Below, one piece after another: positions 24,351 to 42,686 of a stretch of 64,000 nucleotides of DNA. The stretch is from Chitinophagaceae bacterium (GTDB lineage: Bacteria > Bacteroidota > Bacteroidia > Chitinophagales > Chitinophagaceae), in assembly GCA_017882265.1 (NCBI GenBank), contig JADGPW010000140.1, forward strand, positions 25,368-89,367. Direction: 5' to 3'. Below the pieces are notes generated by a model. It saw only the letters and a list, made by a program, of their open reading frames with translations. It ran no database searches and had not been told where the DNA came from. Both the position numbers and the translations under genes were made by a program. The first letter of the stretch is position 1. Every line of letters begins with the position of its first letter.

Positions 24351-25469
24351 ATGAAAAACCATATCCACTTTTTACAGCTTGACCTGTATTTCCATGACTT
24401 CAGGTTTGCCCTACTTTGTTTTATTACTGCTTTTGTAGTAACACTGATGGCTATACCTCCCATCATGGGATTGGTCAAAAGATACCAGTTATTTGATATA
24501 CCTTCTGCCAGGAAAGAACATGCTTCGCCAATTCCTACTATGGGTGGAGTTGCCATTATTGCCGGGATGATGGTGGCTCTTTTTCTTTGGTTTCCTTTCG
24601 GCAACCAGGAGGCCCAGATCTGTTTTTTCTTTTCCATTACCATATTGTTTGGTGTCGGTATCATGGATGATCTCAAAGATCTTTCAGCAAAATATAAGTT
24701 CATTATCCAGGCAGGGCTGGCCATGCTTATTGCTTTATCCGGTATCCGGATTACTTCTTTTGATGGTTTGTTCGGTATTCATGAACTGCCGCTGGCTGCC
24801 CAATATACATTGACCATTCTGGCCATCACCGGTATTACAAACGCTTTTAACATGATCGATGGAATTGATGGCCTGGCCGGAGGTTTAGGTTTTATGAGCC
24901 TTGTTACATTGGGCATATTTTTGACATTGGATGGCGATGTGAACACCGCTTTAATCGCTTTTGCGCTGGCGGGAGGGCTATTTGCCTTTCTATATTTCAA
25001 TTTTAATCCAGCCCGGATTTTTATGGGTGACACCGGTTCCCTTGTCCTGGGTTTTGTGATCGCCGTTCTTTGTATCCGTTTGATGCAGGTAAACCTAGCA
25101 GTAACCAACCCGGTATTGAACCATGCACCTGTATTTGTATTGGGCATTGTACTCATCCCTGTCTATGATACGCTACGGGTATTATCCATGAGAATATGGA
25201 AAGGCAGATCGCCTTTTATGGCCGATAAAACGCATATTCATCACATACTTACGAGAGCAGGTTTTAGCCATGGCTTTGCCGCAAAGCTGATCTGCTTTAT
25301 TCATGGCTTTGTATTAATAGAAGTATATTGGATGAGGTTCCTGCCCCAGGAGCTGATCGTGGCTATCCTGATTGCCATTATGTTACTGGTGACCTTTATT
25401 CTTAAAAATACAGGAATATTGTTCAAAAGATCTTCTGCGTTAAAATCATCGTCAATTACAGAAATCTGA
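24351..25469 (+). CDS. Polyprenyl-phosphate N-acetylhexosamine-1-phosphate transferase, MraY/WecA family
   Basis: Polytopic protein with GIMDDLKDLSAKYKF, NAFNMIDGIDGLAGG and IFMGDTGSLVLGF. Confidence 0.9.
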   Translation: MKNHIHFLQLDLYFHDFRFALLCFITAFVVTLMAIPPIMGLVKRYQLFDIPSARKEHASPIPTMGGVAIIAGMMVALFLWFPFGNQEAQICFFFSITILFGVGIMDDLKDLSAKYKFIIQAGLAMLIALSGIRITSFDGLFGIHELPLAAQYTLTILAITGITNAFNMIDGIDGLAGGLGFMSLVTLGIFLTLDGDVNTALIAFALAGGLFAFLYFNFNPARIFMGDTGSLVLGFVIAVLCIRLMQVNLAVTNPVLNHAPVFVLGIVLIPVYDTLRVLSMRIWKGRSPFMADKTHIHHILTRAGFSHGFAAKLICFIHGFVLIEVYWMRFLPQELIVAILIAIMLLVTFILKNTGILFKRSSALKSSSITEI

Positions 25470-25573: not shown

Positions 25574-26302
25574 TCAGGGTTTTTTCTTTTTCTTTAATGA
25601 ACGTACGCCCATAACGAACAGGTTACGAATTCCCTGGCTTATGGTAATGGCAATGATCCTCATATCCAGCCACAAACCGGCTTTACGAACGTATTGCGCA
25701 TCCCAGAAATAACGGATCACTATGCTTTCATAATCGGTAGTAGGCCCATGATAACCGTTTACCTGTGCCAGACCAGTGATCCCGGGTCGTACAAGATTGC
25801 GGAACTGGTAGGAGGAGATTACAAAGGAGAAGCGGATACAATCTGCCAGCATATGAGGTCTTGGCCCCACCACACTCATATCCCCCACCAGCACGTTGAA
25901 AAATTGCGGTAACTCATCAATATTGGTTTTACGAAGAAAACGACCAATTCGTGTGACACGGGGATCGTTCTCATTGGCTTGTATTTCGTCGGCTTCGGCA
26001 TTTAATACCATCGTCCGGAATTTGATACACATAAAAGATAATCCTTTTGCACCCACCCGTTTCTGCCTGAAAAATATAGGCCCCTTTGAACTCAGCCTGA
26101 TAAGTAAGGCTATCGCTGGCAGCAGCCAACTCATTACCAGCACGATAATTAGCAAGGCGAATAAAATGTCGAAACATCGTTTTACAAATAAATACTTCTT
26201 TTTACTGGCAACGAAGCTGCGGATAATTCCGTTTTGGTTCCAGGCAGGGATTTTCCCGGCCGGAGAAATATGAAGGTTCGTATGATAATTTGCTTCGGGC
26301 AA
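25574..26302 (-). CDS. Small monotopic polyprenyl-phosphate sugar phosphotransferase (bacterial sugar transferase family)
   Basis: KRCFDILFALLIIVL (re-entrant helix), RQKRVGAKGLSFMCIKFRTM, DPRVTRIGRFLRKTNIDELPQFFNVLVGDMSVVGPRP and RPGITGLAQVNG. The track start is TTG, so the exact start is uncertain. Confidence 0.85.
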   Translation of the reverse strand: MPEANYHTNLHISPAGKIPAWNQNGIIRSFVASKKKYLFVKRCFDILFALLIIVLVMSWLLPAIALLIRLSSKGPIFFRQKRVGAKGLSFMCIKFRTMVLNAEADEIQANENDPRVTRIGRFLRKTNIDELPQFFNVLVGDMSVVGPRPHMLADCIRFSFVISSYQFRNLVRPGITGLAQVNGYHGPTTDYESIVIRYFWDAQYVRKAGLWLDMRIIAITISQGIRNLFVMGVRSLKKKKKP

Positions 26303-26388: not shown

Positions 26389-27384
26389 ATGCAAACAGCT
26401 TCATATCAAAAGCGGATCCATATTGCGGAAAATATTCATACCACCGATTGTACGGAGGTCAGCATATTGAAGGCCCTCGCTTATTTTGATATATTTCAGT
26501 ACCCCCTGACAAATAAGGAAATAAAACAGTACCTGGATAAACCGGTAACTGATAATGAACTGGAGAGGGCTATTCACCGCTTGGTGGAAGATGCCACTAT
26601 TTTCCGGATTGCAGATTTTTATTCATTGCAGGATAATTTGTTCCTGGCGGAGAAAAGAGCTGCAGGAAATTTGCGGGCTGAAAGATTGCTGCAAAAAGCC
26701 GCCAGGATCGGACGGTTCCTTTTTCAATTTCCATTTGTAAGAGCGATCGGTATCTCCGGCTCTTTATCTAAGAACTTTGCCGATGAAAAGGCCGACATCG
26801 ATTTTTTTATTATTGCAAAATCAAACAGGCTTTGGATTGCAAGGACATTCATGCATATTTTCAAAAAATTCACTTTTTGTACCGGCAACCAGCATATGTA
26901 TTGTATGAACTACTACATAGATGAAGAATCGCTGGGGATAGAAGAAAAAAATATTTTTACGGCTCTTGAAATAAAAACCCTTTTACCCGTATGTGGAAAA
27001 ACAGCGATGGAGTGTTTTTTTGCTGCCAATAACTGGACGAATGATCTTTTACCGGCCTGTAACTTCCGGCAACAAGTTCGACAGGAACCAAGGCTATCCT
27101 GGCTGAAACAGTTTATCGAATGGATCTTCGATAACAAAATGGGTAATCGTTTCGACGATCACCTTGCAGGAATCACGAGCCGGCGCTGGAAAAAGAAAGA
27201 AGAAAAAGGGAAACTCAATGAAAAAGGACAGCCGATGGGCCTGATCACCGGGAAACATTTTGCCCGGTCTAACCCTGATTCTTTCCAGGAGAAAGTGCTT
27301 TCGGTTTACAGCAGGCAACTGTCCACATTGGGATCGAAGTTGCCACAGTGGTTTGATGAGATCAGTCTTTCTTTCTCAGCGTAA
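26389..27384 (+). CDS. Hypothetical protein; possible winged-helix plus nucleotidyltransferase-fold domain
   Basis: The N-terminus ILKALAYFDIFQYPLTNKEIKQYL is wHTH-like. GISGSLSKNFADEKADIDFFII fits the G[SG]-x(9-13)-DxD pattern of Pol-beta-type NTases. This is a motif-level call only. Confidence 0.55.
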   Translation: MQTASYQKRIHIAENIHTTDCTEVSILKALAYFDIFQYPLTNKEIKQYLDKPVTDNELERAIHRLVEDATIFRIADFYSLQDNLFLAEKRAAGNLRAERLLQKAARIGRFLFQFPFVRAIGISGSLSKNFADEKADIDFFIIAKSNRLWIARTFMHIFKKFTFCTGNQHMYCMNYYIDEESLGIEEKNIFTALEIKTLLPVCGKTAMECFFAANNWTNDLLPACNFRQQVRQEPRLSWLKQFIEWIFDNKMGNRFDDHLAGITSRRWKKKEEKGKLNEKGQPMGLITGKHFARSNPDSFQEKVLSVYSRQLSTLGSKLPQWFDEISLSFSA

Positions 27385-28186
27385 TGATAAAATAATCTCC
27401 TATACTTTTCCAGGGCCATCTGGCTTTCCATTTATCTTCTTTTTTCTCCAGCCACCGGTACAATTTTGGATGTTTCACTGCAAAATTTTCCATATAGGAT
27501 GGAGCCACCAGGGTACACAATCCTTCAAGGTTTATTGTTTCAAATGATCCCCCGAGTTTTTTTTGAATGAATGAAGGAGCATAATACCAACACCTGAAAT
27601 ATTCACCTTCTATATGTGCCGGGGTTCCTCTATGCCCTGAAAACCTCCGGAAAGCGGTTTTAAACTTTCCTTTAAAAAGTAACATAAATTCCCATAAACA
27701 GAACCGGGGTAATACGACAAGGGTTACCAAGCCTCCCGGCTTGACCAAAAAAGCAAATGAATCCAATACCTTTTCGAGATTTGGAGTGCAGTTCAAACCG
27801 GCAAAATTCGAAAAAATAAGGTCATAGGGTCCGGGTTGCCGGAGGTTTTCCAATTCAGTAAATGAACAGATCTCCCGGGTAACCTTATTTTCCAGTTGCG
27901 CCTCGCTAATTTTTTTTTCTAATACGCGTTGCATACCGGCCGAAATATCGGTAGCATGGATCGTATGACCTTGTTGGGCGAAATAAACAGCATCATCTCC
28001 TGTCCCGGCATTTAGCTCCAGTATATGAGATCCGGCAGGAAGGAATCGCATCACATGTTCTCTAACTCTTTTTCTTTTGTACTGAATGATGTTATCCCTG
28101 CCATAGAGCAAATCAAACAGCGGGGCTTGTTTGCTAAAAGCCGCTGTGGCTGCCTGTTCATGAACATGAAGGAGGGGTTCGTTCAT
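27362..28186 (-). CDS. Class I SAM-dependent methyltransferase
   Basis: Motif I HILELNAGTGDDAVYFAQQGHTIHATDIS. The start overlaps the upstream radical SAM stop by 1 nt. Confidence 0.85.
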   Translation of the reverse strand: MNEPLLHVHEQAATAAFSKQAPLFDLLYGRDNIIQYKRKRVREHVMRFLPAGSHILELNAGTGDDAVYFAQQGHTIHATDISAGMQRVLEKKISEAQLENKVTREICSFTELENLRQPGPYDLIFSNFAGLNCTPNLEKVLDSFAFLVKPGGLVTLVVLPRFCLWEFMLLFKGKFKTAFRRFSGHRGTPAHIEGEYFRCWYYAPSFIQKKLGGSFETINLEGLCTLVAPSYMENFAVKHPKLYRWLEKKEDKWKARWPWKSIGDYFIITLRKKD

Positions 28187-29649
28187 TAAATATTTTTTTC
28201 AATTTCCGAAAGCCGTTGCCGGGCTAACCAGGCGGACGGTGTATAATAGATCAATGATAGTGCCTTTTTGATCCTGATAAAATTCATGGAAGCAGGTTTG
28301 ACTATCAGGTTCCTGATCGATTCAAGAGCCAGATGTTTACGATAGCATTTATGAACATAACGATGGAGTTGTTTGTAAAATGCAGGTCCATACGTATTGC
28401 GGAACATCAGGGCCAGTTCATCCGAGTCGGTCCAGTTGGTCTTTTCTTTCAGATCATTTTTTACTTTTTCGAAAAAACTGGTACCCGGCAAAGGATAAGA
28501 AACTGAAATGCCGATCTCGTAGGGTAGTAACTCATTGATCATATTGATCGTTCTTACGATATCCTCCTTTGTTTCACCCGGGTAGCCAAACTGAATGAAA
28601 AAGGAGGGATTGATCGAATGTTTTTTCAGTAGCCGGGTGGCCTCGTAAATCTGCGGTACGGTGGTGCCTTTATCCATGGCATCTAATATCTTTTGTGAGC
28701 CGCTTTCAGCGCCCATCCAAATCGTTGAGCAGCCAGCCCTGGCAAGGTCCCTGATATAATTCTCCTGGAGCAAAAGATCCGCTCTTGCCTGGATCTTAAA
28801 CTTGAACTGCAATTTTTCTTTTTCAAGAAGATCGGCAAAGGTATGCACCCAGCCAGGAGTCAAACCAAAAATATCGTCACAAAACCAGATATGATCGAAT
28901 CCGAATTTATTCTTCAACATTATTAATTCTGCTACCACGTTTTCGGGGGACCGGGAATTATAACGGTTGCCATATATCGGTTTAGCGCACCAGTTGCATT
29001 TAAAAGGACAGCCTCGGGTAGTGGCCAAATTCAGGGAGAAATAGCCTTTTTGTTTTGACCATGTTTTTCGATACATATCTATGTCCACGAGATCCCAGGC
29101 TGGAAAAGGCAGACTATCCAGTTCTTTAAGCACCGTGCGCCTGACCGTTTTGATCACCGCGTCATTTTGTTTGAAAGCGATCCCAGGTATAGAAAGAAAA
29201 TCCGTTTGTTGCTGATCTAGCGAAGTTATTAATTGCGCCAATGCTTGTTCAGCTTCACCAAGGATTACAAAATCGGCGCCTTCATCCAGGTATTGTTCAT
29301 AATGATCGGTGGAATCCGAGCTGGATACAAGGACCGTACAACCTTTTTGCCGGGCAAATTTCATCATTTCAAATGCGGCTTCCCGCATATTGGTCAGACA
29401 CATCTTGGTCAGGTAATTGAAACCGTCATCATAGATCACGAAATAACGCGGATCCTGGGTTTCCAGAGGTGGTATCACTTCTTCCGGCCCATAAGCGAAC
29501 ATCGTATCAAGAAAAGAAACTTTATGTCCTTTCTCTCTCATCAACGCGGCGGCATATAGTGTGCCGATGGGTGGATAGGGCTGACCGGTGGCCCATTGCT
29601 TGGGGTCGAACCGCATAAAATAAGAATGAGAGAAGAGTATTTTGCTCAT
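28186..29649 (-). CDS. B12-binding-domain radical SAM protein (class B radical SAM methylase-like)
   Basis: N-terminal Rossmann-like region (GTLYAAALMREKGHKVSFLD...VLVSSS) followed by TTRGCPFKCNWCAKP (CxxxCxxC). Confidence 0.9.
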   Translation of the reverse strand: MSKILFSHSYFMRFDPKQWATGQPYPPIGTLYAAALMREKGHKVSFLDTMFAYGPEEVIPPLETQDPRYFVIYDDGFNYLTKMCLTNMREAAFEMMKFARQKGCTVLVSSSDSTDHYEQYLDEGADFVILGEAEQALAQLITSLDQQQTDFLSIPGIAFKQNDAVIKTVRRTVLKELDSLPFPAWDLVDIDMYRKTWSKQKGYFSLNLATTRGCPFKCNWCAKPIYGNRYNSRSPENVVAELIMLKNKFGFDHIWFCDDIFGLTPGWVHTFADLLEKEKLQFKFKIQARADLLLQENYIRDLARAGCSTIWMGAESGSQKILDAMDKGTTVPQIYEATRLLKKHSINPSFFIQFGYPGETKEDIVRTINMINELLPYEIGISVSYPLPGTSFFEKVKNDLKEKTNWTDSDELALMFRNTYGPAFYKQLHRYVHKCYRKHLALESIRNLIVKPASMNFIRIKKALSLIYYTPSAWLARQRLSEIEKNI

Positions 29650-29683
29650 ATGTTTATATTAATAGCCAGAAATAGAAAGATAT

Positions 29684-29772
29684 GGAATTGGTAATTTGGA
29701 ATTTGGAATTGGGCCTTGATGCGGAATGATCCGAATGCACTGAGGATTCCCTAATTCCAAATAACTAATTCC
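29684..29772. repeat. Intergenic hairpin element with self-similar arms (GGAATTGG-type words)
   Basis: Left arm GGAATTGGTAATTTGGAATTTGGAATTGGG (29684-29713). Right arm CCCTAATTCCAAATAACTAATTCC (29749-29772). The two form an imperfect inverted repeat around a ~35-nt loop. Confidence 0.7.
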
Positions 29773-29797
29773 TTTTCGCCCTAGCCGGCAAAAAAAA

Positions 29798-30862
29798 TCA
29801 AATCAATTTCGTTCCCGGCGAAAGGTTCAGGTAGCATACACATTTTTTACATGTATTGTTTGTATTCATATCAAGTTCCTTCCTGAACCGCATTCCTTGT
29901 TCACCATTTAAAATACTTTCCAGCGATTGATCCCTGATATTTCCCAACGGGGCATGAAAAAAACAGGGTCTTACAGTTCCATCCGCTTCCACGACGGTCG
30001 ATACCCAGGGCGCATTACATTTTTTGTAAGGAAAAGGGTTCAGTCCGTAAAATGCGGAATAATAACCGGGTATCTTCCTCAATTTATCGGGACTTTCAGC
30101 AATGAAATGCGAGGCGAAATCCGGCGCATATTTTTTTATGATATCTTCCGTACCGTTTTTTAATTCGGTTGTTTCATTTTGAGTTAACAGGATCTCATGT
30201 TGTCGCTGATTACTCCATAGTACTTCCCTGTTAAAAGCATGACTACTCGTATCCGCCGGTAAAAAACTGCACTGATCAAGCCCCATCTCTCTGGCACTGT
30301 CAATAATGGCAGGCCAATACCGGAAATTCAGGCGGTGGATCACCGTTCTGGAAGTGATCTTAAATGCCGGATCAAGACTTTTGAGATATTGTACTCCTTC
30401 TCTTAACTTTTGAAAGGCATTCGGGATATTCCTGATCCGGTTATGTATCTCTTCATTCCCATCCAGTGAGACGATGATATCATTTACCCAGGTCAGAATC
30501 CGGGGTGCGTTTTTTTTCAGGGTGAGCCCGGTAGACAGCAACGACACTTTAATATTTTGTCCTTTAAGTATCTCACAAAACCTGAAAAAGTTAGGGTTCA
30601 GCAAGGCCTCACCGCCTGACATGACCACTTGTTGTGTTCCCAGTTTAGTTAATGAACGCATTAACCCGTGTATATCTTTTTCCGTCAATTGTTTCAGGTT
30701 CTTATTGTCCTTCCAGATATCACACATAACGCACTGGCAATTGCAGGCGCTGTGGGGCATCAGGATCGCGATAGGAAGGGCCTTAATATGATCAGTCTGT
30801 AACGTACGGTGACGCTTAAAACGATGATATAATGATTGGGTAATTGTCATTTTAATTGTCAT
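29798..30862 (-). CDS. Radical SAM protein with abbreviated SPASM/twitch-like C-terminal Cys cluster
   Basis: MPHSACNCQCVMCDIW (CxxxCxxC) and SGGEALLNP. The C-terminus has C-x12-G-x4-C (CNAPWVSTVVEADGTVRPC) and CKKCVC. Confidence 0.85.
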   Translation of the reverse strand: MTIKMTITQSLYHRFKRHRTLQTDHIKALPIAILMPHSACNCQCVMCDIWKDNKNLKQLTEKDIHGLMRSLTKLGTQQVVMSGGEALLNPNFFRFCEILKGQNIKVSLLSTGLTLKKNAPRILTWVNDIIVSLDGNEEIHNRIRNIPNAFQKLREGVQYLKSLDPAFKITSRTVIHRLNFRYWPAIIDSAREMGLDQCSFLPADTSSHAFNREVLWSNQRQHEILLTQNETTELKNGTEDIIKKYAPDFASHFIAESPDKLRKIPGYYSAFYGLNPFPYKKCNAPWVSTVVEADGTVRPCFFHAPLGNIRDQSLESILNGEQGMRFRKELDMNTNNTCKKCVCYLNLSPGTKLI

Positions 30863-31622
30863 CTTTTTTTATACAAACCCATGTAAATGGATTGCTGTTC
30901 CGGAATATGATCCCGGCAAATGGGTGGGGTTTGTATAATATGGAATTGCTGAAAAGGTCGAGTTCCTCAAACGTATGATGAAAATACTGGCGGGCCATTT
31001 CCGGAAAACCCATTTGCCGGTAATAGGATTCCGTTCTTTTTTTGGCAGCCGCTGATTCATTTTTCTTATAAAAGGGACTGTCCATAATATGCAGTTCACC
31101 GCCCGGGTTCAGTAATTGTAAAGCGATATTGATGATCTCGCGCAGGGAAGGAAAATATTGAACCGAAGCGGCAAATAGAATAATATCGAATTTCATATGA
31201 TCCAAAACCCCGGACCTGATATCTCCGTAAATGAACTCCAGGCCGGGAATATTCCTGTACACTCTGGCCGCCTGTTGCAATTCAGTGAAATTGATATCAG
31301 AACCGATCACTTCACTGGTAACGGAATGGGAAAGCTGGAACGAAAGCCAGCCATTTCCACAGCCGGCCTCTAGTATCTTCAGGGTGGATTGTTTTTGTTG
31401 CAGGTAATGGATCAGTTTTCTGCAGGAACCTTTGCGAATCAGCCATTCCCTGAAATGAGGATGTTGTGTTGAAATGTCAGGAAGATGCAGGACCTCTTCA
31501 TCACTGTACATTCTTTTCTCTAGCCACCGGATGTCATTGTATTTCTTTTCAAACAAAGTATCAGGCTTCACTCTTTCCGGAATGTAGACATGGTTGGTGA
31601 TAGTAAAACCTGAGAGGTTCAT
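30852..31622 (-). CDS. Class I SAM-dependent methyltransferase
   Basis: Motif I LKILEAGCGNGWLSFQL. It overlaps the downstream radical SAM start by 11 nt. Confidence 0.85.
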   Translation of the reverse strand: MNLSGFTITNHVYIPERVKPDTLFEKKYNDIRWLEKRMYSDEEVLHLPDISTQHPHFREWLIRKGSCRKLIHYLQQKQSTLKILEAGCGNGWLSFQLSHSVTSEVIGSDINFTELQQAARVYRNIPGLEFIYGDIRSGVLDHMKFDIILFAASVQYFPSLREIINIALQLLNPGGELHIMDSPFYKKNESAAAKKRTESYYRQMGFPEMARQYFHHTFEELDLFSNSILYKPHPFAGIIFRNSNPFTWVCIKKDDN

Positions 31623-31654
31623 GAATGTTTATTTTAATTGACCCTGTTCGATAT

Positions 31655-33157
31655 TCAAAACCCCTGTATCTCCGGTTGACGGTATTTCCAAAGGCGGTGT
31701 AATAATTTTATTTCGTATGGGAAACGGTAAAAACTGGTCTTATAGCGCAATCCGGCAACTGTCCGAATCAGTTTCCGTTTTACCGAATTGAGCCGGATAT
31801 CTGAAACGGTGGGAAAGTAACCATTTAATACTGTTTCAAAATTCCTGATCTTATCGATCATTTCAGGAGTGAGCCAGGGGGTCAATGGATTTTTCCGCAT
31901 ATCGAACCGTTCCCATTGGGGTGTGATCCAATCCTCCAGTTTCCTTGGATATTCAAACCCGCTTGCCAGCACTTCATTATACAGATCAGAACCTTCTGTT
32001 GGGACCGGACTGTATGTATACAAAACGATCTCTGTTCTTGGATTGACAGCTTTTACTTTTTTGATAAAACGGATATCAAATTCGATCTGTTCCATCACTT
32101 TTTCAGGAGTAGGAGCAGGGGTACCCAGTACGAAGGAATACTCGGGAATGATGTCAAATTTTTTCAGGCGTCCGGCAAATCGGACGATCTGCTCCCCGGT
32201 TTGTGTCCCACCTTTGTCCAATTGCTTCAGCACAGCATCATTACCGCTTTCCGCACCAAAGAAAATTATTTTACAACCTGCTTCACGGATCAGGGCCAAT
32301 GATTCATCTTTGAATTTATCCATGGTATCAATCCTTGCCATCCCCCACCAGTTCATCTTCTCTGGCTTTATCAGTTTTGAAAACTCCACTGTTCTTTTCT
32401 CGGATACAAAAAAATTGTTATCATGAAACTCAATGGCATTAGCGCCCCATCTTTCTTTGATATATTTAATGTCCTTATACACAGTGGAAGCTGATTTGGC
32501 TTTCCATCTGGCTTCGTAGGTAGGTACCACTGCGCAAAATGAGCAGGTGAACGGGCAGCCGATGCTGGAATGATAAGCAAGGGTGCGGGTTCCCAAATAC
32601 GTTTTACCCAAATAGTATTTATCTACGGAATAAAATCTGTTCAGTTTATCATAGGGTAAAGGGGGAAGACTGTCCTGTTCGATCAGGTCTTCTTTTGCAT
32701 TTTTAAGGATGGCATCTCCGGAACGATAAATAAGATTCTTAATAAGCTCATAGGGCTTATTATTTTCCAATGCCTCCAGTAATTGGGGGAAAGCACGATC
32801 CCCAGGGCCATTGATCACAAAATCTACATACCCGGATTGCAAAACGATCTTGTAATGATTGGTTGGGAAATAGCCTCCCCATATCAGGATAGTATCGGGA
32901 AATTCTTCTTTTATTTTTTTGGAAAAAGGGATAGCCTGCTTGGTTTGGGGTCCGGGCATGATCGTAAAACCTACATACCTGAACTGACCTGTTTTTAAAT
33001 AGCGGCTGATCGCTGCATAAGGATCTTTTTCGCAATTACCATCTACGATTACCCAATCAAATATTCCATCAACGGAAGCTGCAATATTCATGATGGAATT
33101 GGGAATACGATGTTTCGCATTGGCACTTTTGGGATTAAAAAGCAGGACCTTATTCAT
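31655..33157 (-). CDS. B12-binding-domain radical SAM protein (class B radical SAM methylase-like)
   Basis: N-terminal Rossmann-like region (VGFTIMPGPQTKQAIPFSKKIKEEFPDTILIWGG) followed by HSSIGCPFTCSFCAV (CxxxCxxC). It is a divergent paralogue of 28186-29649. Confidence 0.9.
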   Translation of the reverse strand: MNKVLLFNPKSANAKHRIPNSIMNIAASVDGIFDWVIVDGNCEKDPYAAISRYLKTGQFRYVGFTIMPGPQTKQAIPFSKKIKEEFPDTILIWGGYFPTNHYKIVLQSGYVDFVINGPGDRAFPQLLEALENNKPYELIKNLIYRSGDAILKNAKEDLIEQDSLPPLPYDKLNRFYSVDKYYLGKTYLGTRTLAYHSSIGCPFTCSFCAVVPTYEARWKAKSASTVYKDIKYIKERWGANAIEFHDNNFFVSEKRTVEFSKLIKPEKMNWWGMARIDTMDKFKDESLALIREAGCKIIFFGAESGNDAVLKQLDKGGTQTGEQIVRFAGRLKKFDIIPEYSFVLGTPAPTPEKVMEQIEFDIRFIKKVKAVNPRTEIVLYTYSPVPTEGSDLYNEVLASGFEYPRKLEDWITPQWERFDMRKNPLTPWLTPEMIDKIRNFETVLNGYFPTVSDIRLNSVKRKLIRTVAGLRYKTSFYRFPYEIKLLHRLWKYRQPEIQGF

Positions 33158-33248
33158 AACTCTTTCAGAACGAAATCAAAACACAGGGGGTTGCCTTCTA
33201 TTCTTTGTTCTTTATGCTTATTTTTAGCACAATTACTCAAGATAGGAT

Positions 33249-33977
33249 ATGTCATTACCCCGCCAACTAAAGAGGCTATTCTTCGGCAAAAAAGAAACCG
33301 ATCCTGCCAGGGCTTACGGGCTCTGGGCCGCAAGTTATGATGTACAACCTGGCAACCTGATGCTGGACATGGATGAGGACCTATTTACCGGGTTTTTGAA
33401 TGAAACACCTGTTTCCGGGAAAAGGGTTGTGGATATTGGCTGTGGCACCGGTCGTCATTGGAAGAAGATCATGCAAAAAAACCCGGCCCGATTGATCGGT
33501 TATGATGTTTCCGCAGAAATGTTGGATAAACTGAAACAGAAATTCCCGGGAGCGGAAACCCATGTTATAGTAGATCATGTGCTTCCTGGCCTGGAAGATA
33601 ATTCCTGCGATCTTATTATTTCGACACTTACCATTGCCCATATACCCGCTATTGAAAAAGCCATGTTGGAATGGAACCGGGTTTTAAAACCGGGTGGGGA
33701 GATCATCATCACTGATTATCATCCTGAAGCATTGGCCAGAGGGGGTAAAAGGACATTCAGGCACGAAGGAAAACTCGTGGCTGTTAAAAACTATATTCAC
33801 TCCGTGAAGAAGATGAGGTTGTTAGCCAAGCAACTGCAATTCAAAGAACTTCGTTTTGCCGAAAGGGTCATTAATGATTCAGTAAAAGGCTATTATGAAA
33901 GACAAAATGCGCTTCTGCTATTTGAGCAATTCAGGGAGGTTCCAATTATTTATGGTATTCATTTAAAGAAAGTATGA
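33249..33977 (+). CDS. Class I SAM-dependent methyltransferase
   Basis: Motif I KRVVDIGCGTGRHW, then LKPGGEIIITDYHP. The stop overlaps the next start (ATGA). Confidence 0.85.
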   Translation: MSLPRQLKRLFFGKKETDPARAYGLWAASYDVQPGNLMLDMDEDLFTGFLNETPVSGKRVVDIGCGTGRHWKKIMQKNPARLIGYDVSAEMLDKLKQKFPGAETHVIVDHVLPGLEDNSCDLIISTLTIAHIPAIEKAMLEWNRVLKPGGEIIITDYHPEALARGGKRTFRHEGKLVAVKNYIHSVKKMRLLAKQLQFKELRFAERVINDSVKGYYERQNALLLFEQFREVPIIYGIHLKKV

Positions 33978-35104
33978 TCCTTCATGATCTTCACATTTTA
34001 GGAACTACGGCCATAAAACATATTCATGTTGAGCAGGGGAAAATAAAAGCTATTACGAATTACAGGGAGGATCTGGGCCATCTGTCCGGTGAGCAGCACC
34101 TGGAACTTGACAAGGCGATGGCTTTCCCGGGACTTATCAACTCACATGATCATCTTGACTTTAATTTATTTCCCAGGCTTGGCAACAGGATATATGATAA
34201 CTATACGGAATGGGGAGCTGATATACACCTGGTCAATAGTGAAATTATAAAACAGGTATTGCGGATACCCTTACCGCTTCGAATAAAATGGGGGCTCTAT
34301 AAAAATCTTCTGAATGGTTTTACTACGGTGGTCAATCATGGCGATCTGCTCAGGATTGAAGACGAACTTATCACTGTTGTCCAGGATGGCTATACACTTC
34401 ATTCTCCGGCATTTGAAAAGAACTGGAAATGGAAATTGAATAAACCCTTTAAAAAACATGACCTCTTCGTGATGCATATTGGTGAGGGCACGGATCCGGC
34501 TGCGGAAAAAGAGATCAGTGAAGTGATTCGTTGGAATCTCTTTAAACGGAAGATCATTGCCGTTCATGGCGTGGCGATGAAAGAGAGCCAGGCGGCTTCA
34601 TTTGCTGGGCTGGTATGGTGTCCTGCTTCCAATTATTTCTTATTGAAAAGGACGGCGGCAATTGACAAACTTAAAAGCAAAACAAAAATAGTTTTTGGAT
34701 CAGACTCCACTTTAACAGCACCCTGGAATTTGTGGGAACATATCCGGCAGGCAAAAAAAACAGGTATGATGACAGATGAGGAACTCATTGAGGCATTAAC
34801 AACGATTCCGGCTGAATTGTGGGGAAGGAAGGAAGTGGGAACAATTGAAGCAAATAAAACTGCGGATATGGTTGTGACAAGAAAAAACGACGATTTTTTC
34901 AACCTGAACCCGGAAGATATTTTGCTTGTCATTCACCAGGGAAATATCCGGATGTTTGACAGCAGCCTTTCAATGCAACTAAATAACCTGGTGGGTAAGG
35001 ATTTTGAAAGCATAGCGCTAAATGTATCCGTAAAATATGTGCAGGGAGATTTAAGCGCCCTGATAGATGAAATAAAAAGCTATGGTATTCAAACCAATTT
35101 GTAA
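33974..35104 (+). CDS. Amidohydrolase-superfamily metal-dependent hydrolase
   Basis: The motif FPGLINSHDHLDFN gives an HxH metal site. Further candidate ligands lie in IAVHGVAM and FGSDS. Confidence 0.8.
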   Translation: MILHDLHILGTTAIKHIHVEQGKIKAITNYREDLGHLSGEQHLELDKAMAFPGLINSHDHLDFNLFPRLGNRIYDNYTEWGADIHLVNSEIIKQVLRIPLPLRIKWGLYKNLLNGFTTVVNHGDLLRIEDELITVVQDGYTLHSPAFEKNWKWKLNKPFKKHDLFVMHIGEGTDPAAEKEISEVIRWNLFKRKIIAVHGVAMKESQAASFAGLVWCPASNYFLLKRTAAIDKLKSKTKIVFGSDSTLTAPWNLWEHIRQAKKTGMMTDEELIEALTTIPAELWGRKEVGTIEANKTADMVVTRKNDDFFNLNPEDILLVIHQGNIRMFDSSLSMQLNNLVGKDFESIALNVSVKYVQGDLSALIDEIKSYGIQTNL

Positions 35105-36009
35105 TGACGGCCTTTTCTTTCCTGGTGCAGGAACAACAGGAAATGGATATGATAAAAACCAGGGGAAGGTTCCTTGATTTTTTCTTCCTGAGCTGTTTCA
35201 CCCCACATCAGCATATGACTTCCCAGGTTGATGGTCTTTACAATCCTGATCTCTTTATAGGAGCTTGCCCAGGCCGGAACCGGAAACCCAAACATTTTAC
35301 TGGGAGATGTTGTAAAAGGAAGGAGATCCAATGAAGGCGGAGATGTACTATGATGTTTTCCCAGTTTATATATCTCATCCTTGTGTTCAAATGAAACTTC
35401 TGAAACGACTATTTTTCCTGTTTCGATTATTTTGGCCAATGTACGGTTGGTATGTCTTAGTCCAAATACAAATTTGTTGGAACCGGGAATGGGAGCAAGC
35501 AGGTCCATCGGGAAGATATTAAAATGACCACCTTCTTTGAATGAAATGATTCTTACCCTTCGCGGGTAACTGTAGGCTGTCACCAGAGCTTTGAATTTCT
35601 TAAAAGAATGACCGGGCTTGCGGTAGTATCGGGAGAATAAAAATCTTGCTTCAGCGAAATTGGTATGATAGATATTTCCCTCTTCATATTTCATTAAGTA
35701 CAGGCTGCCTTCTTCTTCTTCCATTTTACTAAATACTTTGAGCTTTACTTTCGCCAGGGTTTTTTCCGGATCCCGTATGATCATTTTCAGATCCTGGTCG
35801 TCGGGATCAAAAGGGGGCTCTCCTTTTTTCAGCCAAACCCCAAAGATTACCGGTTCCAGGCAAAGTACCCAATGACAGGTGGATATCTCCAGTAGCTTGT
35901 CTTTTGCTTCTAAAAAAACTTTTTCATAGATTTCCCTGTCCACTGTTATACCAGAGTATTCCGTGATCACAATATTTTTATAAATCATTTTTTTCAAAAA
36001 GCTCATCAT
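35089..36009 (-). CDS. Hypothetical protein; possible flavin-reductase-like split-barrel region
   Basis: 306-aa ORF translationally coupled (4-nt overlap) to the upstream methyltransferase. YPRRVRIISFKEGGHFNIFPMDLLAPI...FVFGLRHTNRTLAKIIETGKIVVSEV loosely resembles FMN-binding split-barrel proteins. This is a weak call. Confidence 0.55.
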   Translation of the reverse strand: MMSFLKKMIYKNIVITEYSGITVDREIYEKVFLEAKDKLLEISTCHWVLCLEPVIFGVWLKKGEPPFDPDDQDLKMIIRDPEKTLAKVKLKVFSKMEEEEGSLYLMKYEEGNIYHTNFAEARFLFSRYYRKPGHSFKKFKALVTAYSYPRRVRIISFKEGGHFNIFPMDLLAPIPGSNKFVFGLRHTNRTLAKIIETGKIVVSEVSFEHKDEIYKLGKHHSTSPPSLDLLPFTTSPSKMFGFPVPAWASSYKEIRIVKTINLGSHMLMWGETAQEEKIKEPSPGFYHIHFLLFLHQERKGRHYKLV

Positions 36010-36728
36010 TTCCTTATGAGGTGTATCAATGAAAATTCGTTTTCTTTCAATGCTGTAATATGATGAAGATCAAAATGGCTCCCCGAAGCTTTTATGATCT
36101 TCTCCAGAGTATGCAGGTACACGGTTTGTTGCCGATGGCCGAATTCAACTGTTATTTGAACAGTGGCCCCGGAAAATAGGGATGCGATTGTGCCCCTGCG
36201 ATTGGAGCGCCATCTTTTTTTGAATGAGCTGTTGAGCACAAGAGCGAATAACTGCGCCCCCGGCCGGGTAACCATCGCAAGACTTTTAAATAATATGCTC
36301 AGTGCGGGAATGCAGTTGATAACCGCGAAATTACAAAGCACTGCATCCGCTTTTGATTCGAAGGGAAGGGTTTCCTGCCATCCCCGGAAATCGGTCTTTG
36401 CTTCATCGAGGAATAAAATATCGCGGTCCTGAAGCTTTTCTTTATTAAACCGCATCGCTATTTCACGCATAGCTGTGGAGGGTTCACAAACTATGACCTG
36501 GTAATTATTTTTGCTTAGCCAAGCCAGGTCTTTTCCCGTACCGGCCCCAAAATCCAGCACCGTTCCTCCGGGCACTTTTCTCAAAAAAAGTCCTGCTACT
36601 GTATTCCTGGTAACGGCATTCTCCTTATCCTGGTCAAGAATATGATCGTATTGCGAAGCGATCTTATCGTAGTACAAGATATTCTGCTGCATGATCATCG
36701 CTTCATTTACATTGGAACTGCTTATCAT
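36006..36728 (-). CDS. Class I SAM-dependent methyltransferase
   Basis: Motif I GTVLDFGAGTGKDLAWL. Confidence 0.85.
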   Translation of the reverse strand: MISSSNVNEAMIMQQNILYYDKIASQYDHILDQDKENAVTRNTVAGLFLRKVPGGTVLDFGAGTGKDLAWLSKNNYQVIVCEPSTAMREIAMRFNKEKLQDRDILFLDEAKTDFRGWQETLPFESKADAVLCNFAVINCIPALSILFKSLAMVTRPGAQLFALVLNSSFKKRWRSNRRGTIASLFSGATVQITVEFGHRQQTVYLHTLEKIIKASGSHFDLHHITALKENEFSLIHLIRK

Positions 36729-36832
36729 ATATTATTTGATCTTGCAACTTACATATAAAATTGTAGCGGGCTATTCTTACTTTCGTAACGGGTATGTTAT
36801 TGCAATGGTGGTCTGCCCGGTATATTTTTTTT

Positions 36833-37942
36833 ATGAAGATCGTTTTTATAGCCTATAATCATCTGCCGGGATATCATTCACCAGAACAATGGATCAAAAG
36901 GATCAAGCCTTTTGCAGGCGTTATGGAATCGCTCAGCCGGTATTGTCAGGTGTATTATGCCGGACAGATCAATTATGCGGGTATATGGTCACAGGATGGC
37001 GTTGAATATCATTTTTTGCAATCCTCAAAAATGAGATCCCGGGTTCCCTTTCATTTGCATCAAACTATAAAAAAGCTCCGGCCTGATATCGTTATTGTGT
37101 TGGGGCTACATTTTCCTTTAGAGATATTACAATTGCGATGGAGTTTGGGAAAAAAAGTAAAAATCATTGCCCGGCATCATGCCGACAGCCCGCCAGGAGG
37201 TATCAGAAAAATCTTGCTGCGGATAGCGGATCATTATGTGAATGCTTACCTGTTCACTACACAATGGCACGCCGGGGAATGGGTGGATGCAAGGATCATC
37301 AGAAACAGAAATAAGATCCATGAGCTTTTTGAAGCTTCTACAGATTTTACGCGGGAGGATAAGGAGCAAAGCAAAAAAAAGACTGGGATGCGGGGAGATC
37401 ACAATTTTCTTTGGGTAGGAAGGCTAAATGAAAATAAGGACCCCATCACTGTATTGGCAGGATTTGAAAAATATCTATCTGAAAACCCTGTTGCCAGGCT
37501 GCACATGATCTTTCAGGAAGACGATCTTCTGCCGGCAGTGAGATCAAAGATCCGGAAAAGTTCATGGCTGAGCAATGCCGTTCATCTTCATGGTTTAATT
37601 GATTATAATGAATTACCTGCTTGGTACAGCGCTGCTGATTTTTTTATTTCAGGAAGCCACCGTGAAGGCGGCAGTTATGCTTTATTAGAAGCAATGGCCT
37701 GTGGCTGCATACCTGTTGTTACCGCCATTCCCGCATCCCTGAAAACGATCTGTAATGATAAATATGGCCTGAGCTACAAAGCAGGGAATGTCGATGAGCT
37801 GGCCGATAAACTTTCAATGGCCGGTAAACTTTCAAAAGTTGAATTCTCTGCTAACATCGAAACCTATTTCAAAAAAGAACTTTCATCACAGGCCATTGCC
37901 GGGAAGCTTTACAGGATTGTTGAAAATTTACAGGCCATATAG
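36833..37942 (+). CDS. Glycosyltransferase family 4 (GT-B fold)
   Basis: The ATG at 36833 gives MKIVFIAYNH. The C-terminal motif is GSHREGGSYALLEAMACGCIPVVT (EX7E-type). Confidence 0.85.
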   Translation: MKIVFIAYNHLPGYHSPEQWIKRIKPFAGVMESLSRYCQVYYAGQINYAGIWSQDGVEYHFLQSSKMRSRVPFHLHQTIKKLRPDIVIVLGLHFPLEILQLRWSLGKKVKIIARHHADSPPGGIRKILLRIADHYVNAYLFTTQWHAGEWVDARIIRNRNKIHELFEASTDFTREDKEQSKKKTGMRGDHNFLWVGRLNENKDPITVLAGFEKYLSENPVARLHMIFQEDDLLPAVRSKIRKSSWLSNAVHLHGLIDYNELPAWYSAADFFISGSHREGGSYALLEAMACGCIPVVTAIPASLKTICNDKYGLSYKAGNVDELADKLSMAGKLSKVEFSANIETYFKKELSSQAIAGKLYRIVENLQAI

Positions 37943-38986
37943 GTGCATGACCTTCTTTATCGTATTATCTACCCTATAAGGCAGCACAGGATCATATTCA
38001 GTAGGACTCCGTTGCAGGAGTTCAAGTGTCTTTTGCTGCATGGCTTCTTTTGAACCAGTAATATGCCAATGACGGATCTCCTCATTCATGATCCTGCAAA
38101 AACTGATAACGTGTGCCCCGGCGAATAGGGCTTCCAGGCATACTACACCGAAACCTTCATAAGACGAAGGGTGAAGAAATAGTTTGCTTCGTTGCATGAA
38201 TTTCAGTACATCAGCATGAGGGATTTCTCCCGTCAAGTTAACATTCTCATGCAATTGAAGGCGGTCAATCTGAGCCCGTAAATTTTCTGTTTCCGGACCT
38301 TTGCCACAGAGTACGGCTTTGATGCCGGGAATATATTTTTTTATTTCACTGATGATATCAAGAAATAGATTGAATTGCTTCAGCGGGATGAGTGACCCGG
38401 CTCCGAGGATATCAATATCTTTTTTGAGCGGATTGACAGGGAATTGTCGGGGATCGACACCGGGGCTGATCACATGATCCGGTCTTATTGAATAATTTTT
38501 TTCAAATTCTGACTGGAGGAAATCTGATAAAGCCACCAGTTCATTACTGGCAGGATGGATCCGCTTTACATATTTATTTCCTTTCCTGGCATCCTGACCC
38601 TGCAACCAGCAATAGTGCGGCACATCATGTTTACGGCTGAATTTTTTTCCGATCCACGCGTATTCCCCGCACCAAAAACTCAACATACCGATCAATTTGT
38701 TCTGAGCCTGGATATTTTTAAGCACTTTCAGTATCCTTCTCCACAATACTAATTTTAGCAATGGCCCTTTTTTGTAGCCATTAAAAGGTATCACCTCCAC
38801 ACCCTGCCATTGGTAGGATGCCCGGTGAAAAGGATAGTGAAAAGCAAGAATTATAATGGTAAGACCGGGAAAATTTTCTTTCAATGCCTTTACAAATGTT
38901 TGATGAAAAGGTAAACAAGTGCTATCCGTTTCATCTGCTGCGAACCCGGGTGTGAGAATAAGGAAAGTTGACTTTTTATGGCTCAT
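37928..38986 (-). CDS. Glycosyltransferase family 4 (GT-B fold)
   Basis: PSSYEGFGVVCLEALFAGAHVIS. The ATG at 38986 (MSHKKSTFLILTPGF) is preferred over the track start at 39031 because it minimises overlap with the ABC gene. Confidence 0.85.
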   Translation of the reverse strand: MSHKKSTFLILTPGFAADETDSTCLPFHQTFVKALKENFPGLTIIILAFHYPFHRASYQWQGVEVIPFNGYKKGPLLKLVLWRRILKVLKNIQAQNKLIGMLSFWCGEYAWIGKKFSRKHDVPHYCWLQGQDARKGNKYVKRIHPASNELVALSDFLQSEFEKNYSIRPDHVISPGVDPRQFPVNPLKKDIDILGAGSLIPLKQFNLFLDIISEIKKYIPGIKAVLCGKGPETENLRAQIDRLQLHENVNLTGEIPHADVLKFMQRSKLFLHPSSYEGFGVVCLEALFAGAHVISFCRIMNEEIRHWHITGSKEAMQQKTLELLQRSPTEYDPVLPYRVDNTIKKVMHLYGL

Positions 38987-41861: not shown

Positions 41862-42686
41862 TCAGCCCTCTCCTGCAATAGATTTCTTTTCGGCTAGCAA
41901 CAGTTTTGTTATCTGGGATGAGGATTTTATTTGCTTGGAGCGCTGGAGCCGGTACAACTTGCTGTATTTTAAAAAAACCTGATGTGAAGTATTGATAGCG
42001 ATCGTGAAACCATCAAACCCATCCCAGAAACCGAGGCGGAAGAAATAACCGTTAATAAAAGCCCATGCCGGGCGGAACAGGATCTTCAACCAGGAACTGC
42101 GGCGACCGATATTATACAAGGAGATGGCCGCTATAGTACTTAGCCGGTTATTTTGCCAAATATGATCATCCACTGTGTTAAATGAATAATGAAGAATATC
42201 GCCCTCTAGGTGTTTAACCGGGATATCATTTTGGAGCCCGATCTTATCATGGGGATTCAGGCCTCCCCATTTGGCGATCCTCCTGTCAAATAAACGGATC
42301 TTCTTATCCGGGTACCAGAGTCCGTGACGGATAAAACGACCGCAATAACTGGTGCATCGGTTCATGCGGTAAGCACGGAAGGAAAATGAATGTTTTGCTT
42401 CAAGGATCGAATCAACAAGTGTATCATCCAGGGTTTCATCGGCATCAAGGCTTAAAATATAATTATGGGAAGCCAGTTGCATGGCAAAATTCTTTTGCCC
42501 GATATAACCTCTGAATTTTTCATGATGAACAATAGCGCCCCGGTTTCGGGCTATTTCCACCGTGCTGTCGGTAGAATAAGAATCAAGAACGATGATCTCA
42601 TCGGCAACTTTTTTTACCGAATCTATACATCTCCCGATATTTTGTTCTTCGTTAAAAGTAATGATGACAACTGATAAACAGGGCAT
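41862..42686 (-). CDS. Glycosyltransferase family 2
   Basis: The ATG at 42686 gives MPCLSVVIITFNEEQNIGRCIDSV. Further motifs are VLDSYSTDSTVEIA and LSLDADE. The track start at 42728 is TTG. Confidence 0.85.
   Translation of the reverse strand: MPCLSVVIITFNEEQNIGRCIDSVKKVADEIIVLDSYSTDSTVEIARNRGAIVHHEKFRGYIGQKNFAMQLASHNYILSLDADETLDDTLVDSILEAKHSFSFRAYRMNRCTSYCGRFIRHGLWYPDKKIRLFDRRIAKWGGLNPHDKIGLQNDIPVKHLEGDILHYSFNTVDDHIWQNNRLSTIAAISLYNIGRRSSWLKILFRPAWAFINGYFFRLGFWDGFDGFTIAINTSHQVFLKYSKLYRLQRSKQIKSSSQITKLLLAEKKSIAGEG

Follow-up and report, generated by a model that had tools for sequence, protein, structure and literature searches.

Radical S-adenosylmethionine (SAM) enzymes of class B that tailor sugars are known from antibiotic pathways and from the synthesis of lipid head groups. 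In the former, GenK, GenD1/GntE, Fms7 and MoeK5 combine an N-terminal B12-binding-type Rossmann domain with a CX3CX2C core and are set among glycosyltransferases (GTs) and class I SAM methyltransferases (MTs), the substrate of MoeK5 being a lipid-linked saccharide; GenK, GenD1 and MoeK5 are the precedent for methylation of a sugar carbon (PMC12931638). In the latter, exemplified by the HpnI-HpnK-HpnJ route to the bacteriohopanetetrol (BHT) cyclitol ether and by Cds, the calditol synthase of archaea, a GT and a hydrolase come first and the class B enzyme then modifies the lipid-anchored head-group sugar, and HpnJ and Cds are the precedent for contraction of the sugar ring (PMC13459092). Here we analyse a stretch of 64,000 nucleotides from a Chitinophagaceae bacterium (contig JADGPW010000140.1; hereafter the window), in which positions 26389-36728 encode two class B radical SAM proteins (rSAM1 and rSAM2), a third radical SAM protein with an abbreviated SPASM (twitch-like) C-terminus (the twitch rSAM), four class I MTs (MT1 to MT4), an amidohydrolase, a nucleotidyltransferase (NTase)-like protein and a flavin-reductase-like protein. 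We read the surrounding ~27 kb (22710-49819) as a cell-envelope glycan locus and this radical SAM/MT module as its tailoring core, with a probability that we put a little above one half (roughly 0.55). As a conserved part of undecaprenyl phosphate (Und-P) glycan loci in several phyla, radical SAM tailoring would be new: a full-text search of the literature found no description of such a module, and no curated NCBIfam model captures any of its enzymes.

While rSAM1 and rSAM2 appear to share the domain arrangement of the GenK/MoeK5 group, and the module its setting among GTs and class I MTs, both proteins score far below the cutoffs of the class B families, the locus is of the Und-P envelope type rather than an antibiotic cluster, and a pair of distinct paralogues, with 30% mutual identity, stands beside a twitch rSAM, with methyl transfer by the pair putative. 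HpnIJK and Cds differ in other respects, since the present locus lacks genes for hopanoids or tetraethers, its hydrolase is deaminase-like instead of YdjC-type, and three radical enzymes with three to four MTs contrast with one radical enzyme. The layout also resembles the Campylobacter pgl/lipooligosaccharide (LOS) type, with a small monotopic phosphoglycosyl transferase (PGT), several GTs of families 4 and 2 (GT4, GT2), a Wzy_C protein and neither Wzz nor Wza, and the ATP-binding cassette (ABC) half-transporter of the locus aligns end to end with Campylobacter PglK. Unlike in that type, all scores of the locus fall under the equivalog cutoffs and radical SAM tailoring enzymes are present; we know of no pgl-type pathway that contains them.

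A Conserved Module in the Bacteroidota

All ten open reading frames (ORFs) delimited in 26389-36728 by a first-pass annotation, made from the window alone, were found at the same coordinates, and Pfam confirmed most of their domain assignments. The motifs quoted there are present in the translations (CPFKCNWC in rSAM1, CPFTCSFC in rSAM2, and CNCQCVMC, C-x12-G-x4-C and CKKCVC in the twitch rSAM), as are the four GxGxG motifs, one to each MT, and the HxH of the amidohydrolase (NSHDH). Overlaps between ORFs measure 1, 11, 4 and 4 nt, and divergent gaps are located at 33158-33248 and 36729-36793.

The synteny sample comprised 49 full-length loci from Chitinophagia, Sphingobacteriia and Cytophagia, and the gene order is fixed across these three classes: the ABC half-transporter and a GT4 gene run in one direction, a second GT4, the amidohydrolase and MT3 in the other, and, beyond the divergent gap, rSAM2, MT2, the twitch rSAM, rSAM1 and MT1 again in the first, followed by the NTase-like gene in reverse. 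Present in every locus are rSAM2 (median identity 77%), rSAM1 (66%), the twitch rSAM (65%), MT1 (59%), MT3 and the amidohydrolase (50% each), and the NTase-like gene occurs in 46 of the 49 (47%). The two neighbouring GT4 genes keep a fixed position in 46 (36794-37942; 40%) and 47 loci (37928-39031; 47%), MT2 and a Cps2T-like GT4 are found in 36 each (47 and 50%, respectively), and the ABC half-transporter in 35 (48%), a count that is limited by flank length. The flavin-reductase-like gene (16/49; 34%) and MT4 (11/49; 28%) are the least constant. That the ten genes travel as a unit is therefore true of eight, which retain their order together with the GT4 pair next to them and the ABC half-transporter, whereas 35089-36009 and 36006-36728 are accessory.

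Homologues of rSAM2, which is conserved more than any other gene here, form more than 120 clusters at ≥80% identity, and relatives occur in at least 568 genomes in a scan of one genome per species. The best 80 relatives come from Chitinophagaceae (80-88% identity; genera with relatives include Hanamia, Ferruginibacter, Ginsengibacter, Puia and Pinibacter), Mucilaginibacter (74-77%) and Runella (75%). Since this identity tracks taxonomy, the synteny looks vertical and GC content is flat across module and flanks (0.42-0.43 throughout 22-40 kb), we reject the reading of the module as a foreign island; what had been described as an island nested in a glycan locus is instead the most conserved part of that locus. 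The greater conservation of the tailoring genes relative to the GTs argues for purifying selection on a conserved substrate and not for recent transfer of the whole block. A copy of rSAM2 88% identical to that of the window lies on a 7-kb contig titled 'MAG: Bordetella parapertussis' (L004, CALRSN020000109.1), almost certainly a contig of Chitinophagales that has been mis-binned or given the wrong label.

The accessory content of the related loci is all envelope-glycan in character. In 35 further loci there is a divergent Wzy_C gene; GNAT genes occur in 17, polysaccharide deacetylase genes in 14, Wzx in 5 and GT9 in 3, and 10 of the 49 loci carry a membrane GT of the GT-C/PMT_2 (Alg9-like) type between the twitch rSAM and rSAM1 genes (e.g., L059, 13368-14843). 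The link to a lipid-linked or exported glycan, proposed earlier from the window, gains from this comparison of neighbourhoods: GTs co-occur strongly with the module across relatives, and glycan-assembly genes stand beside it in 46-49 of the 49 Bacteroidota loci as well as in other phyla.

Relatives in Other Phyla

The module is not confined to the Bacteroidota, and orthologues at 28-53% identity were found in other phyla. In an exhaustive HMMER search, in which the Bacteroidota orthologues collapse into one 50%-identity representative, these are followed by about ten full-length relatives at 36-43% identity and then by a class B background at ~30%; a profile of the ten or so relatives retrieves proteins whose names assign them to Chloroflexota, Acidobacteriota, Planctomycetota and Gemmatimonadota. 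Identities across phyla are 46-53% for rSAM1, 37-44% for rSAM2 and 40% for the twitch rSAM, and fall to 29-31% for MT1 (L085, L086 and L087), 28-30% for MT3 (L085 and L086) and 30% for the amidohydrolase (L085).

The locus L085, of the Acidobacteriota type (GC 57%), has a Wzy_C gene, then four to five genes for radical SAM proteins with a B12-binding domain (B12-rSAMs), including orthologues of rSAM1 (47%) and rSAM2 (37%), and further MT1-, MT2- and MT3-like genes, the amidohydrolase and a twitch rSAM (40%). L086, from Candidatus Sulfotelmatobacter, has the same type of core with five B12-rSAMs, joined by an ABC-2 transporter pair and an NTP_transf_5 protein. In L087 (GC 59%), an NTase-like orthologue (E 1e-35) precedes rSAM1 (53%), MT1, the twitch rSAM (40%) and rSAM2 (44%), after which come Wzx, an MT, a GT4 and Wzy_C. 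On a contig of JGI 3300047160, finally, a MurJ-like flippase, a GT4 and a Bac_transf gene are divergent from four B12-rSAMs, MTs, the amidohydrolase and a SPASM protein. The kernel common to these loci is rSAM1, rSAM2, the twitch rSAM and MTs of the MT1/MT3 type, with or without the amidohydrolase and the NTase-like protein, and each of the four adjoins at least one gene that initiates, flips, exports or ligates a polyprenyl-linked glycan. The number of B12-rSAM copies in the Acidobacteriota-type relatives (about five, as against two here; L085 2109-11464, L086 3661-11464 and the JGI contig) suggests that one and the same scaffold is modified iteratively or at several sites.

Radical SAM Enzymes

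Pfam recognises the radical SAM core of rSAM1 (28186-29649, minus strand) at E 3e-22; its B12-binding domain reaches 29.8 bits, under the gathering threshold of 32.1, and the BchE model aligns through it. Its highest NCBIfam scores are to BchE (147 bits, cutoff 481), HpnJ (119) and PhpK (118), and its matches in the Protein Data Bank (PDB) include QCMT (9CCB, E 1.4e-18) and AprD4 (E 2.7e-12). In rSAM2 (31655-33157, minus strand), the B12-binding domain exceeds the threshold (36.6 bits) and the core scores E 1e-12, with HpnJ (107 bits, cutoff 578), BchE (104) and PhpK (101) as the leading families. The nearest solved structures of the pair are QCMT, AprD4, CysS, OxsB and TokK, and the CX3CX2C cysteine triads of both proteins are invariant among orthologues. 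Both fall below the curated NCBIfam cutoffs for BchE, HpnJ and PhpK (481-600), and likewise below those for HpnR, QCMT, BzaD, AprD4, KedN5, TsrM-type enzymes, RiPP C-methyltransferases and the ladderane rSAM. With all scores so far under the cutoffs, no known substrate clade applies, and these proteins lie outside the characterised clades.

Both proteins may use cobalamin. How many methyl groups the module could install is less secure than the first-pass annotation had supposed in allowing for up to six, because BchE and HpnJ, the top family matches, are not methylases, AprD4, a dehydratase with a related domain that binds no cobalamin, is near, and methylating and non-methylating class B enzymes are not separable by sequence (PMC12931638). 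Six would be an upper bound, on the putative assumption that the class B pair methylates; MT4, moreover, is accessory.

The twitch rSAM (29798-30862, minus strand), another core member, matches both Radical_SAM (E 8e-14) and, above gathering, SPASM (PF13186; E 5e-13). Its CX3CX2C core lies directly at the N-terminus, as in enzymes of the BtrN/BlsE/anSME type, and the cysteines invariant among 49 orthologues are C40/C44/C47 and C282-x17-C300-x37-C338-x2-C341 plus C343. With only five C-terminal cysteines, a single twitch-like auxiliary cluster is more likely than a full two-cluster SPASM domain. The C-x17-C...C-x2-C spacing may resemble that of the single auxiliary cluster of BtrN, and BtrN was not recovered at E ≤ 1e-3 among solved structures; weak matches there (E 1e-7 to 1e-9) are SkfB, anSME and the sugar decarboxylase BlsE.

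Methyltransferases, Amidohydrolase and Associated Proteins

MT1 (27362-28186, minus strand; Methyltransf_25, E 1e-11) and MT3 (33249-33977, plus; Methyltransf_11, E 2e-20) belong to the core, MT2 (30852-31622, minus; Methyltransf_31, E 3e-14) is semi-core, being absent in some loci such as L070, and MT4 (36006-36728, minus; Methyltransf_23, E 1e-11) is accessory. Their pairwise identities of 21-25% (25% for MT4 and MT1) argue that the four are old, distinct enzymes.

The HxH protein at 33974-35104 (plus strand), also part of the core, is indeed a member of the amidohydrolase superfamily (Amidohydro_1, E 2e-15), and resembles nucleobase deaminases for S-adenosylhomocysteine (SAH), methylthioadenosine (MTA) or 5'-deoxyadenosine more than it does a generic hydrolase. 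Its invariant residues (H58, H60, H168-x-x-E171, H198 and D244 in 19-49 orthologues, including one of the Acidobacteriota type) fit the cog0402 signature of the Tm0936/MtaD/DadD-type deaminases, with HxH on strand 1, HxxE on strand 5, His on strand 6 and Asp on strand 8. Searched against the PDB as a profile, it finds the SAH/MTA deaminase Tm0936 at E ~1e-11 (2.2e-11), aligned through the catalytic motifs, and as further best solved relatives the MTA/SAH deaminase 4F0R and the aminofutalosine deaminase 7LKJ; phmmer gave no PDB match, only the profile search does, and the protein belongs to no specific deaminase equivalog in NCBIfam (17-44 bits against cutoffs of 320-543). As the module enzymes release 5'-deoxyadenosine and SAH with each turnover, the most economical view is of a deaminase dedicated to these by-products, and the enzyme most likely removes the inhibitory 5'-deoxyadenosine, SAH and MTA; alternatively, it might deaminate or deacylate a pathway intermediate. 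We know of no description of a dedicated SAH/MTA/5'-deoxyadenosine deaminase copy inside a glycan locus.

The alternative role is central to a variant of our preferred explanation modelled on HpnI, HpnK and HpnJ. A GT4 would add an N-acetyl-amino sugar, the amidohydrolase would remove the acyl or amino group, and a class B enzyme would contract the ring before methylation, giving a carbocyclic (cyclitol-type) unit without C-methylation. For both B12-rSAMs, HpnJ ranks first or second among the NCBIfam matches, a WecA-like GlcNAc-1-P transferase is encoded in the window, polysaccharide deacetylase and GNAT genes are accessory in relatives, and the succession of GT, deacetylase and B12-rSAM is established for the BHT cyclitol ether, with Cds comparable (PMC13459092). 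We nevertheless hold this route to be rather improbable, given HpnJ scores of 107-119 bits against a cutoff of 578 and an amidohydrolase whose HxxE deaminase signature and nearest relatives set it apart from both HpnK (YdjC-type) and the NagA-type deacetylases.

The remaining two proteins were called from weaker signals. The core protein at 26389-27384 (plus strand) appears to combine a winged helix-turn-helix (wHTH) with a pol-beta-type NTase-like domain, a call that stays marginal in Pfam (NTP_transf_2, PF01909, E 2e-3, below gathering). It has an invariant G124-S125...D136-x-D138 motif, as in pol-beta hG[GS]...[DE]h[DE]h, placed on strands E117-123 and E138-143 of an AlphaFold2 model built with an alignment (pLDDT 84.9), for which a single-sequence model (pLDDT 38) was discarded. 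Foldseek ranks MNT/ANT/AAD nucleotidyltransferases and wHTH regulators at the top, none significantly (E ≥ 0.019, TM ≤ 0.25 on the query), and two homologues carry precomputed PF18765 or PF01909 assignments. The accessory flavin-reductase-like protein (35089-36009, minus strand), proposed earlier as a possible flavin mononucleotide (FMN) split-barrel, is equally marginal, at 26.6 bits against a Flavin_Reduct gathering threshold of 27; in the PDB its sequence finds the FMN-binding protein PH0856 weakly (E 0.017), and its profile gave no match.

Search for a Peptide Substrate

The module could also be read as part of a cluster for a peptide made by the ribosome and modified after translation (RiPP), in which the radical SAM enzymes and MTs would act on a remote or missed peptide, the ABC protein would export it and the GTs would serve as glycocin-like decorators, in the manner of proteusins or polytheonamide. 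SPASM enzymes are mostly peptide maturases, class B enzymes such as PoyB/C C-methylate peptides, weak matches to ApyD (87-103 bits) and rSAM_ocin_1 (86-99 bits) were obtained, and the ABC protein is as like bacteriocin exporters as it is like MsbA; L086, in addition, has the NTP_transf_5 gene and a 98-aa ORF. We consider this very improbable. A six-frame comparison across the 49 loci, by two independent screens and direct reading of the gaps, found no conserved precursor ORF, the conserved small ORFs all being antisense or out of frame within large genes, and ORFs in the gaps were common to at most a few close relatives or near-identical genomes. No PqqD/RiPP recognition element (RRE) or leader-peptidase domain was detected among the ~38 window proteins scanned, the ABC protein has no C39 domain, and the twitch rSAM, whose radical core starts at residue ~38, cannot accommodate an RRE at its N-terminus. 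Scores to the RiPP models lie far under their cutoffs, and the module is linked consistently to Und-P glycan genes. The earlier observation that no peptide substrate is visible thus extends from the window to its relatives. Two candidate precursors were rejected: a 30-aa ORF upstream of rSAM2 in L002 is confined to three near-identical loci, and the 98-aa ORF of L086 is without core-peptide character.

The gaps within the module measure 0-150 nt and are not conserved. The gap of 148 nt between rSAM1 and the twitch rSAM (29650-29797) lies outside the conserved design, shrinking to ~10-17 nt in L005, L014 and L023, and contains no peptide ORF and one weak terminator-like hairpin; a direct-repeat-like tract, AATTCCAAATTCCAAATTACCAATTCC, occupies 29700-29730 in this gap, which relatives lack. 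The divergent region that separates the operon of rSAM2 from that of MT3 and the amidohydrolase (33158-33248) likewise has no conserved ORF. Blocks of GGCAACCC and TTTCGTTYTGAARGA occur just upstream of the rSAM2 start both in the window (33158-33200) and in L002 (9950-10000) and could be a leader or regulatory element, and in Mucilaginibacter the region upstream of rSAM2 spans 230-340 nt instead of 91 nt (L044, L064, L066, L068 and L071; about 9660-10000), again with no ORF that is conserved. A riboswitch or structured RNA in the divergent gap was rejected, as neither the window nor six loci gave an Rfam family at its gathering score, the enlarged Mucilaginibacter gap included. Promoter and terminator counts were at the level of shuffled sequence in a scan that used the sigma-70 consensus, which is not suited to Bacteroidota.

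Glycan-Assembly Genes and a Putative Pathway

Around the module, Pfam confirms four GT4 and four GT2 genes, a WecA-like and a Bac_transf initiating transferase, a Wzy_C gene and an ABC half-transporter, so that the earlier account of the flanks stands in all but the Wzz-like protein. No such protein was found, and the ORF to the left of the module at 18428-20881 (817 aa) encodes a glycoside hydrolase of family GH31.

Initiating PGTs of an Und-P glycan pathway are represented by a WecA-like polyprenyl-phosphate GlcNAc-1-P transferase of the MraY family (24351-25469, plus strand; Glycos_transf_4, E 1e-42; ECA_wecA 186 bits, cutoff 326; ~11-13 hydrophobic segments) and by a small monotopic PGT with a WcaJ-like catalytic domain (25574-26302, minus; Bac_transf, E 3e-61; WcaJ_sugtrans 277 bits across the catalytic domain). 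The latter adjoins the module in 17 of the 49 loci and on one non-Bacteroidota contig. Two GT4 genes are tightly linked to the module (36794-37942, plus, Glycos_transf_1 E 1e-19; 37928-39031, minus, E 1e-23), followed by the ABC half-transporter (38976-40637, minus; ABC_tran, E 1e-27), a fused transmembrane and nucleotide-binding domain protein of the MsbA/PglK/CydD type that scores 196 bits to MsbA and 174 to PglK, the latter in a full-length alignment, all below cutoffs, and is a candidate flippase or exporter. Together with the Wzy_C protein of the O-antigen ligase/polymerase family (42879-44144, minus; E 4e-10; 9 hydrophobic segments), it would provide the export and ligation end of such a pathway. 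Four GT2 genes (Glycos_transf_2) lie at 22710-23933 (minus; E 1e-18), forming the left edge of the locus and a gene for which relatives show no counterpart within 10 kb of the module, at 40561-41568 (minus; E 1e-34; family in 26 loci), at 41862-42728 (minus; E 6e-21; in 15 of the 49 loci, median identity 66%) and at 45291-46349 (plus; E 5e-13). To these are added a Cps2T-like GT4 with DUF1972 (47649-48743, minus; DUF1972 E 4e-21; Cps2T 186 bits, cutoff 500) and, at the right edge, a further GT4 (48740-49819, minus; Glycos_transf_1, E 6e-19; in 25-27 loci). Cps2T is a rhamnosyltransferase for undecaprenyl diphosphate (Und-PP)-Glc, and the Cps2T-like GT4 and the WcaJ-like PGT point to a primer of the Und-PP-Glc-Rha type. 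Two membrane proteins are without Pfam or NCBIfam match, one with 2-3 hydrophobic segments (44220-45086, minus; in 7 loci) and one polytopic with ~8 (46336-47529, plus; in 5 loci). Matches of the GTs to TIGR04157 (a GT of the GG-Bacteroidales peptide system) and to the MSMEG_0565 family, at 43-59 bits against cutoffs of 260-400, were set aside as generic GT4 likeness. An OmpA-family protein at the edge of the locus (50632-51681), also seen in L044 (3177-3890; Mucilaginibacter sp. SP1R1), may be a loosely linked member.

What the analysis shows is domain content, conservation of catalytic residues, synteny, co-occurrence with glycan genes across phyla and the absence of a precursor ORF. We suggest as the best reading, at the odds given at the outset, that the module carries out radical and methyl tailoring of an undecaprenyl-linked oligosaccharide in the cytoplasm, before flipping and ligation. 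The Bac_transf protein, the WecA-like transferase or both would prime Und-P at the cytoplasmic face, and the linked GT4 pair, the Cps2T-like GT4 and further GT2 and GT4 enzymes would lengthen the chain. While it is still cytoplasmic, soluble enzymes would remodel one or more of its sugars; none of the tailoring proteins has a hydrophobic segment, which fits cytoplasmic action, and by the same measure the Wzy_C, WecA-like and ABC proteins and the unannotated product of 46336-47529 are polytopic. The twitch rSAM may abstract a sugar hydrogen, leading to oxidation, epimerisation or a cross-link, the class B pair may modify unactivated carbons of the sugar, whether through C-methylation or through a rearrangement by radical chemistry, ring contraction for example, and the three core class I MTs (four in this genome) may add O- or N-methyl groups. 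The NTase-like protein could supply a transient nucleotidyl handle or have a regulatory role, and the deaminase-type amidohydrolase would clear 5'-deoxyadenosine, SAH and MTA, or else deaminate or deacylate an intermediate. The product would then be flipped or exported by the MsbA/PglK-like ABC half-transporter and ligated or polymerised by the Wzy_C-family protein.

A number of observations weigh against this scheme. Median identity is far higher for the radical SAM genes (65-77%) than for the linked GTs (40-50%), which would also suit a non-glycan substrate; no GT lies within 10 kb of the module in the Acidobacteriota-type loci L085 and L086; and a Chloroflexota locus (L084) is an exception in having a solitary rSAM2 homologue near a GT87 gene. 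The locus contains no nucleotide-sugar biosynthesis genes, and a scan of the proteins from 7 to 64 kb found neither Wzz, Wzc nor Wza, an absence that favours a ligated oligosaccharide of the LOS or glycoprotein type over a capsule. The B12-binding domain of rSAM1, finally, is under the Pfam gathering threshold, and cobalamin-free AprD4 is among the best solved relatives.

The first two of these points would equally be expected if the module built or modified a non-sugar aglycone (a lipid chain, the polyprenyl carrier or a small metabolite), which the GT4 enzymes would glycosylate and the ABC protein export. L085 and L086 have five B12-rSAMs, with a PEMT/ICMT-type membrane methyltransferase nearby in L086, and multi-copy class B enzymes are typical of iterative modification of alkyl chains and lipids (PMC13459092); rSAM1, too, matches the ladderane-lipid rSAM model at 112 bits. 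That score compares with a cutoff of 360, however, and genes for a fatty-acid, polyketide, isoprenoid or other scaffold are missing from every locus examined, where an initiating PGT, a flippase and Wzy_C recur instead. On this balance an aglycone seems unlikely to us, and we retain the Und-linked oligosaccharide as the preferred substrate.

Other Genes in the Window

Outside the locus, two tandem large proteins ending in Peptidase_S74 (endosialidase intramolecular chaperone) domains, one of them with YadA-head repeats, are encoded at 11566-16131 and followed by an Lcl_C-domain protein; the two look like tail-fibre or adhesin proteins unrelated to the module. A 160-aa multihaem cytochrome c-like protein (16283-16765; CytoC_RC/Cytochrome_C7) stands alone between surface-protein genes. 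At 56162-63674, genes for a Laminin_G_3 protein and a putative glucoamylase come after a SusC/SusD pair and form with it a polysaccharide-utilisation locus. For two large ORFs, 51853-54108 (751 aa) and 9691-11439 (582 aa), no match in Pfam reaches E ≤ 1e-4.

Implications

The conservation of the module across Bacteroidota classes is at a level usual for housekeeping genes. It fixes two distinct class B members and a twitch-type partner in one arrangement that recurs in other dominant soil phyla, in a superfamily of more than 220,000 members in which most sequence-similarity groups are without known function (PMC12931638).

If an envelope glycan is indeed what the module tailors, a new class of bacterial surface sugar would be at hand, and the availability of cobalamin would be coupled to the chemistry of the cell surface in soil bacteria auxotrophic for B12. 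Cultured strains of Mucilaginibacter, Hanamia and Pinibacter carry the locus and would make tractable systems; culturable carriers include Mucilaginibacter sp. SP1R1 and R-33, M. pineti and Hanamia caeni. A deaminase for SAH and 5'-deoxyadenosine embedded in the pathway would, if confirmed, be a new answer to product inhibition where SAM is used intensively. Tentatively, and with more doubt than confidence, we further propose that an ancient enzyme set, not recognised before, turns an ordinary Und-linked sugar into a heavily remodelled unit of the outer surface, multiply C-methylated, branched or carbocyclic, and that this unit is conserved and functionally constrained in soil and freshwater Bacteroidota, Acidobacteriota and their relatives. 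The set would include its own 5'-deoxyadenosine/SAH deaminase, which would sustain the turnover of three radical SAM enzymes and three to four MTs. Should this be so, the locus would represent the first radical-SAM-tailored envelope glycan pathway and would bring with it two or three new functions for class B radical SAM enzymes.

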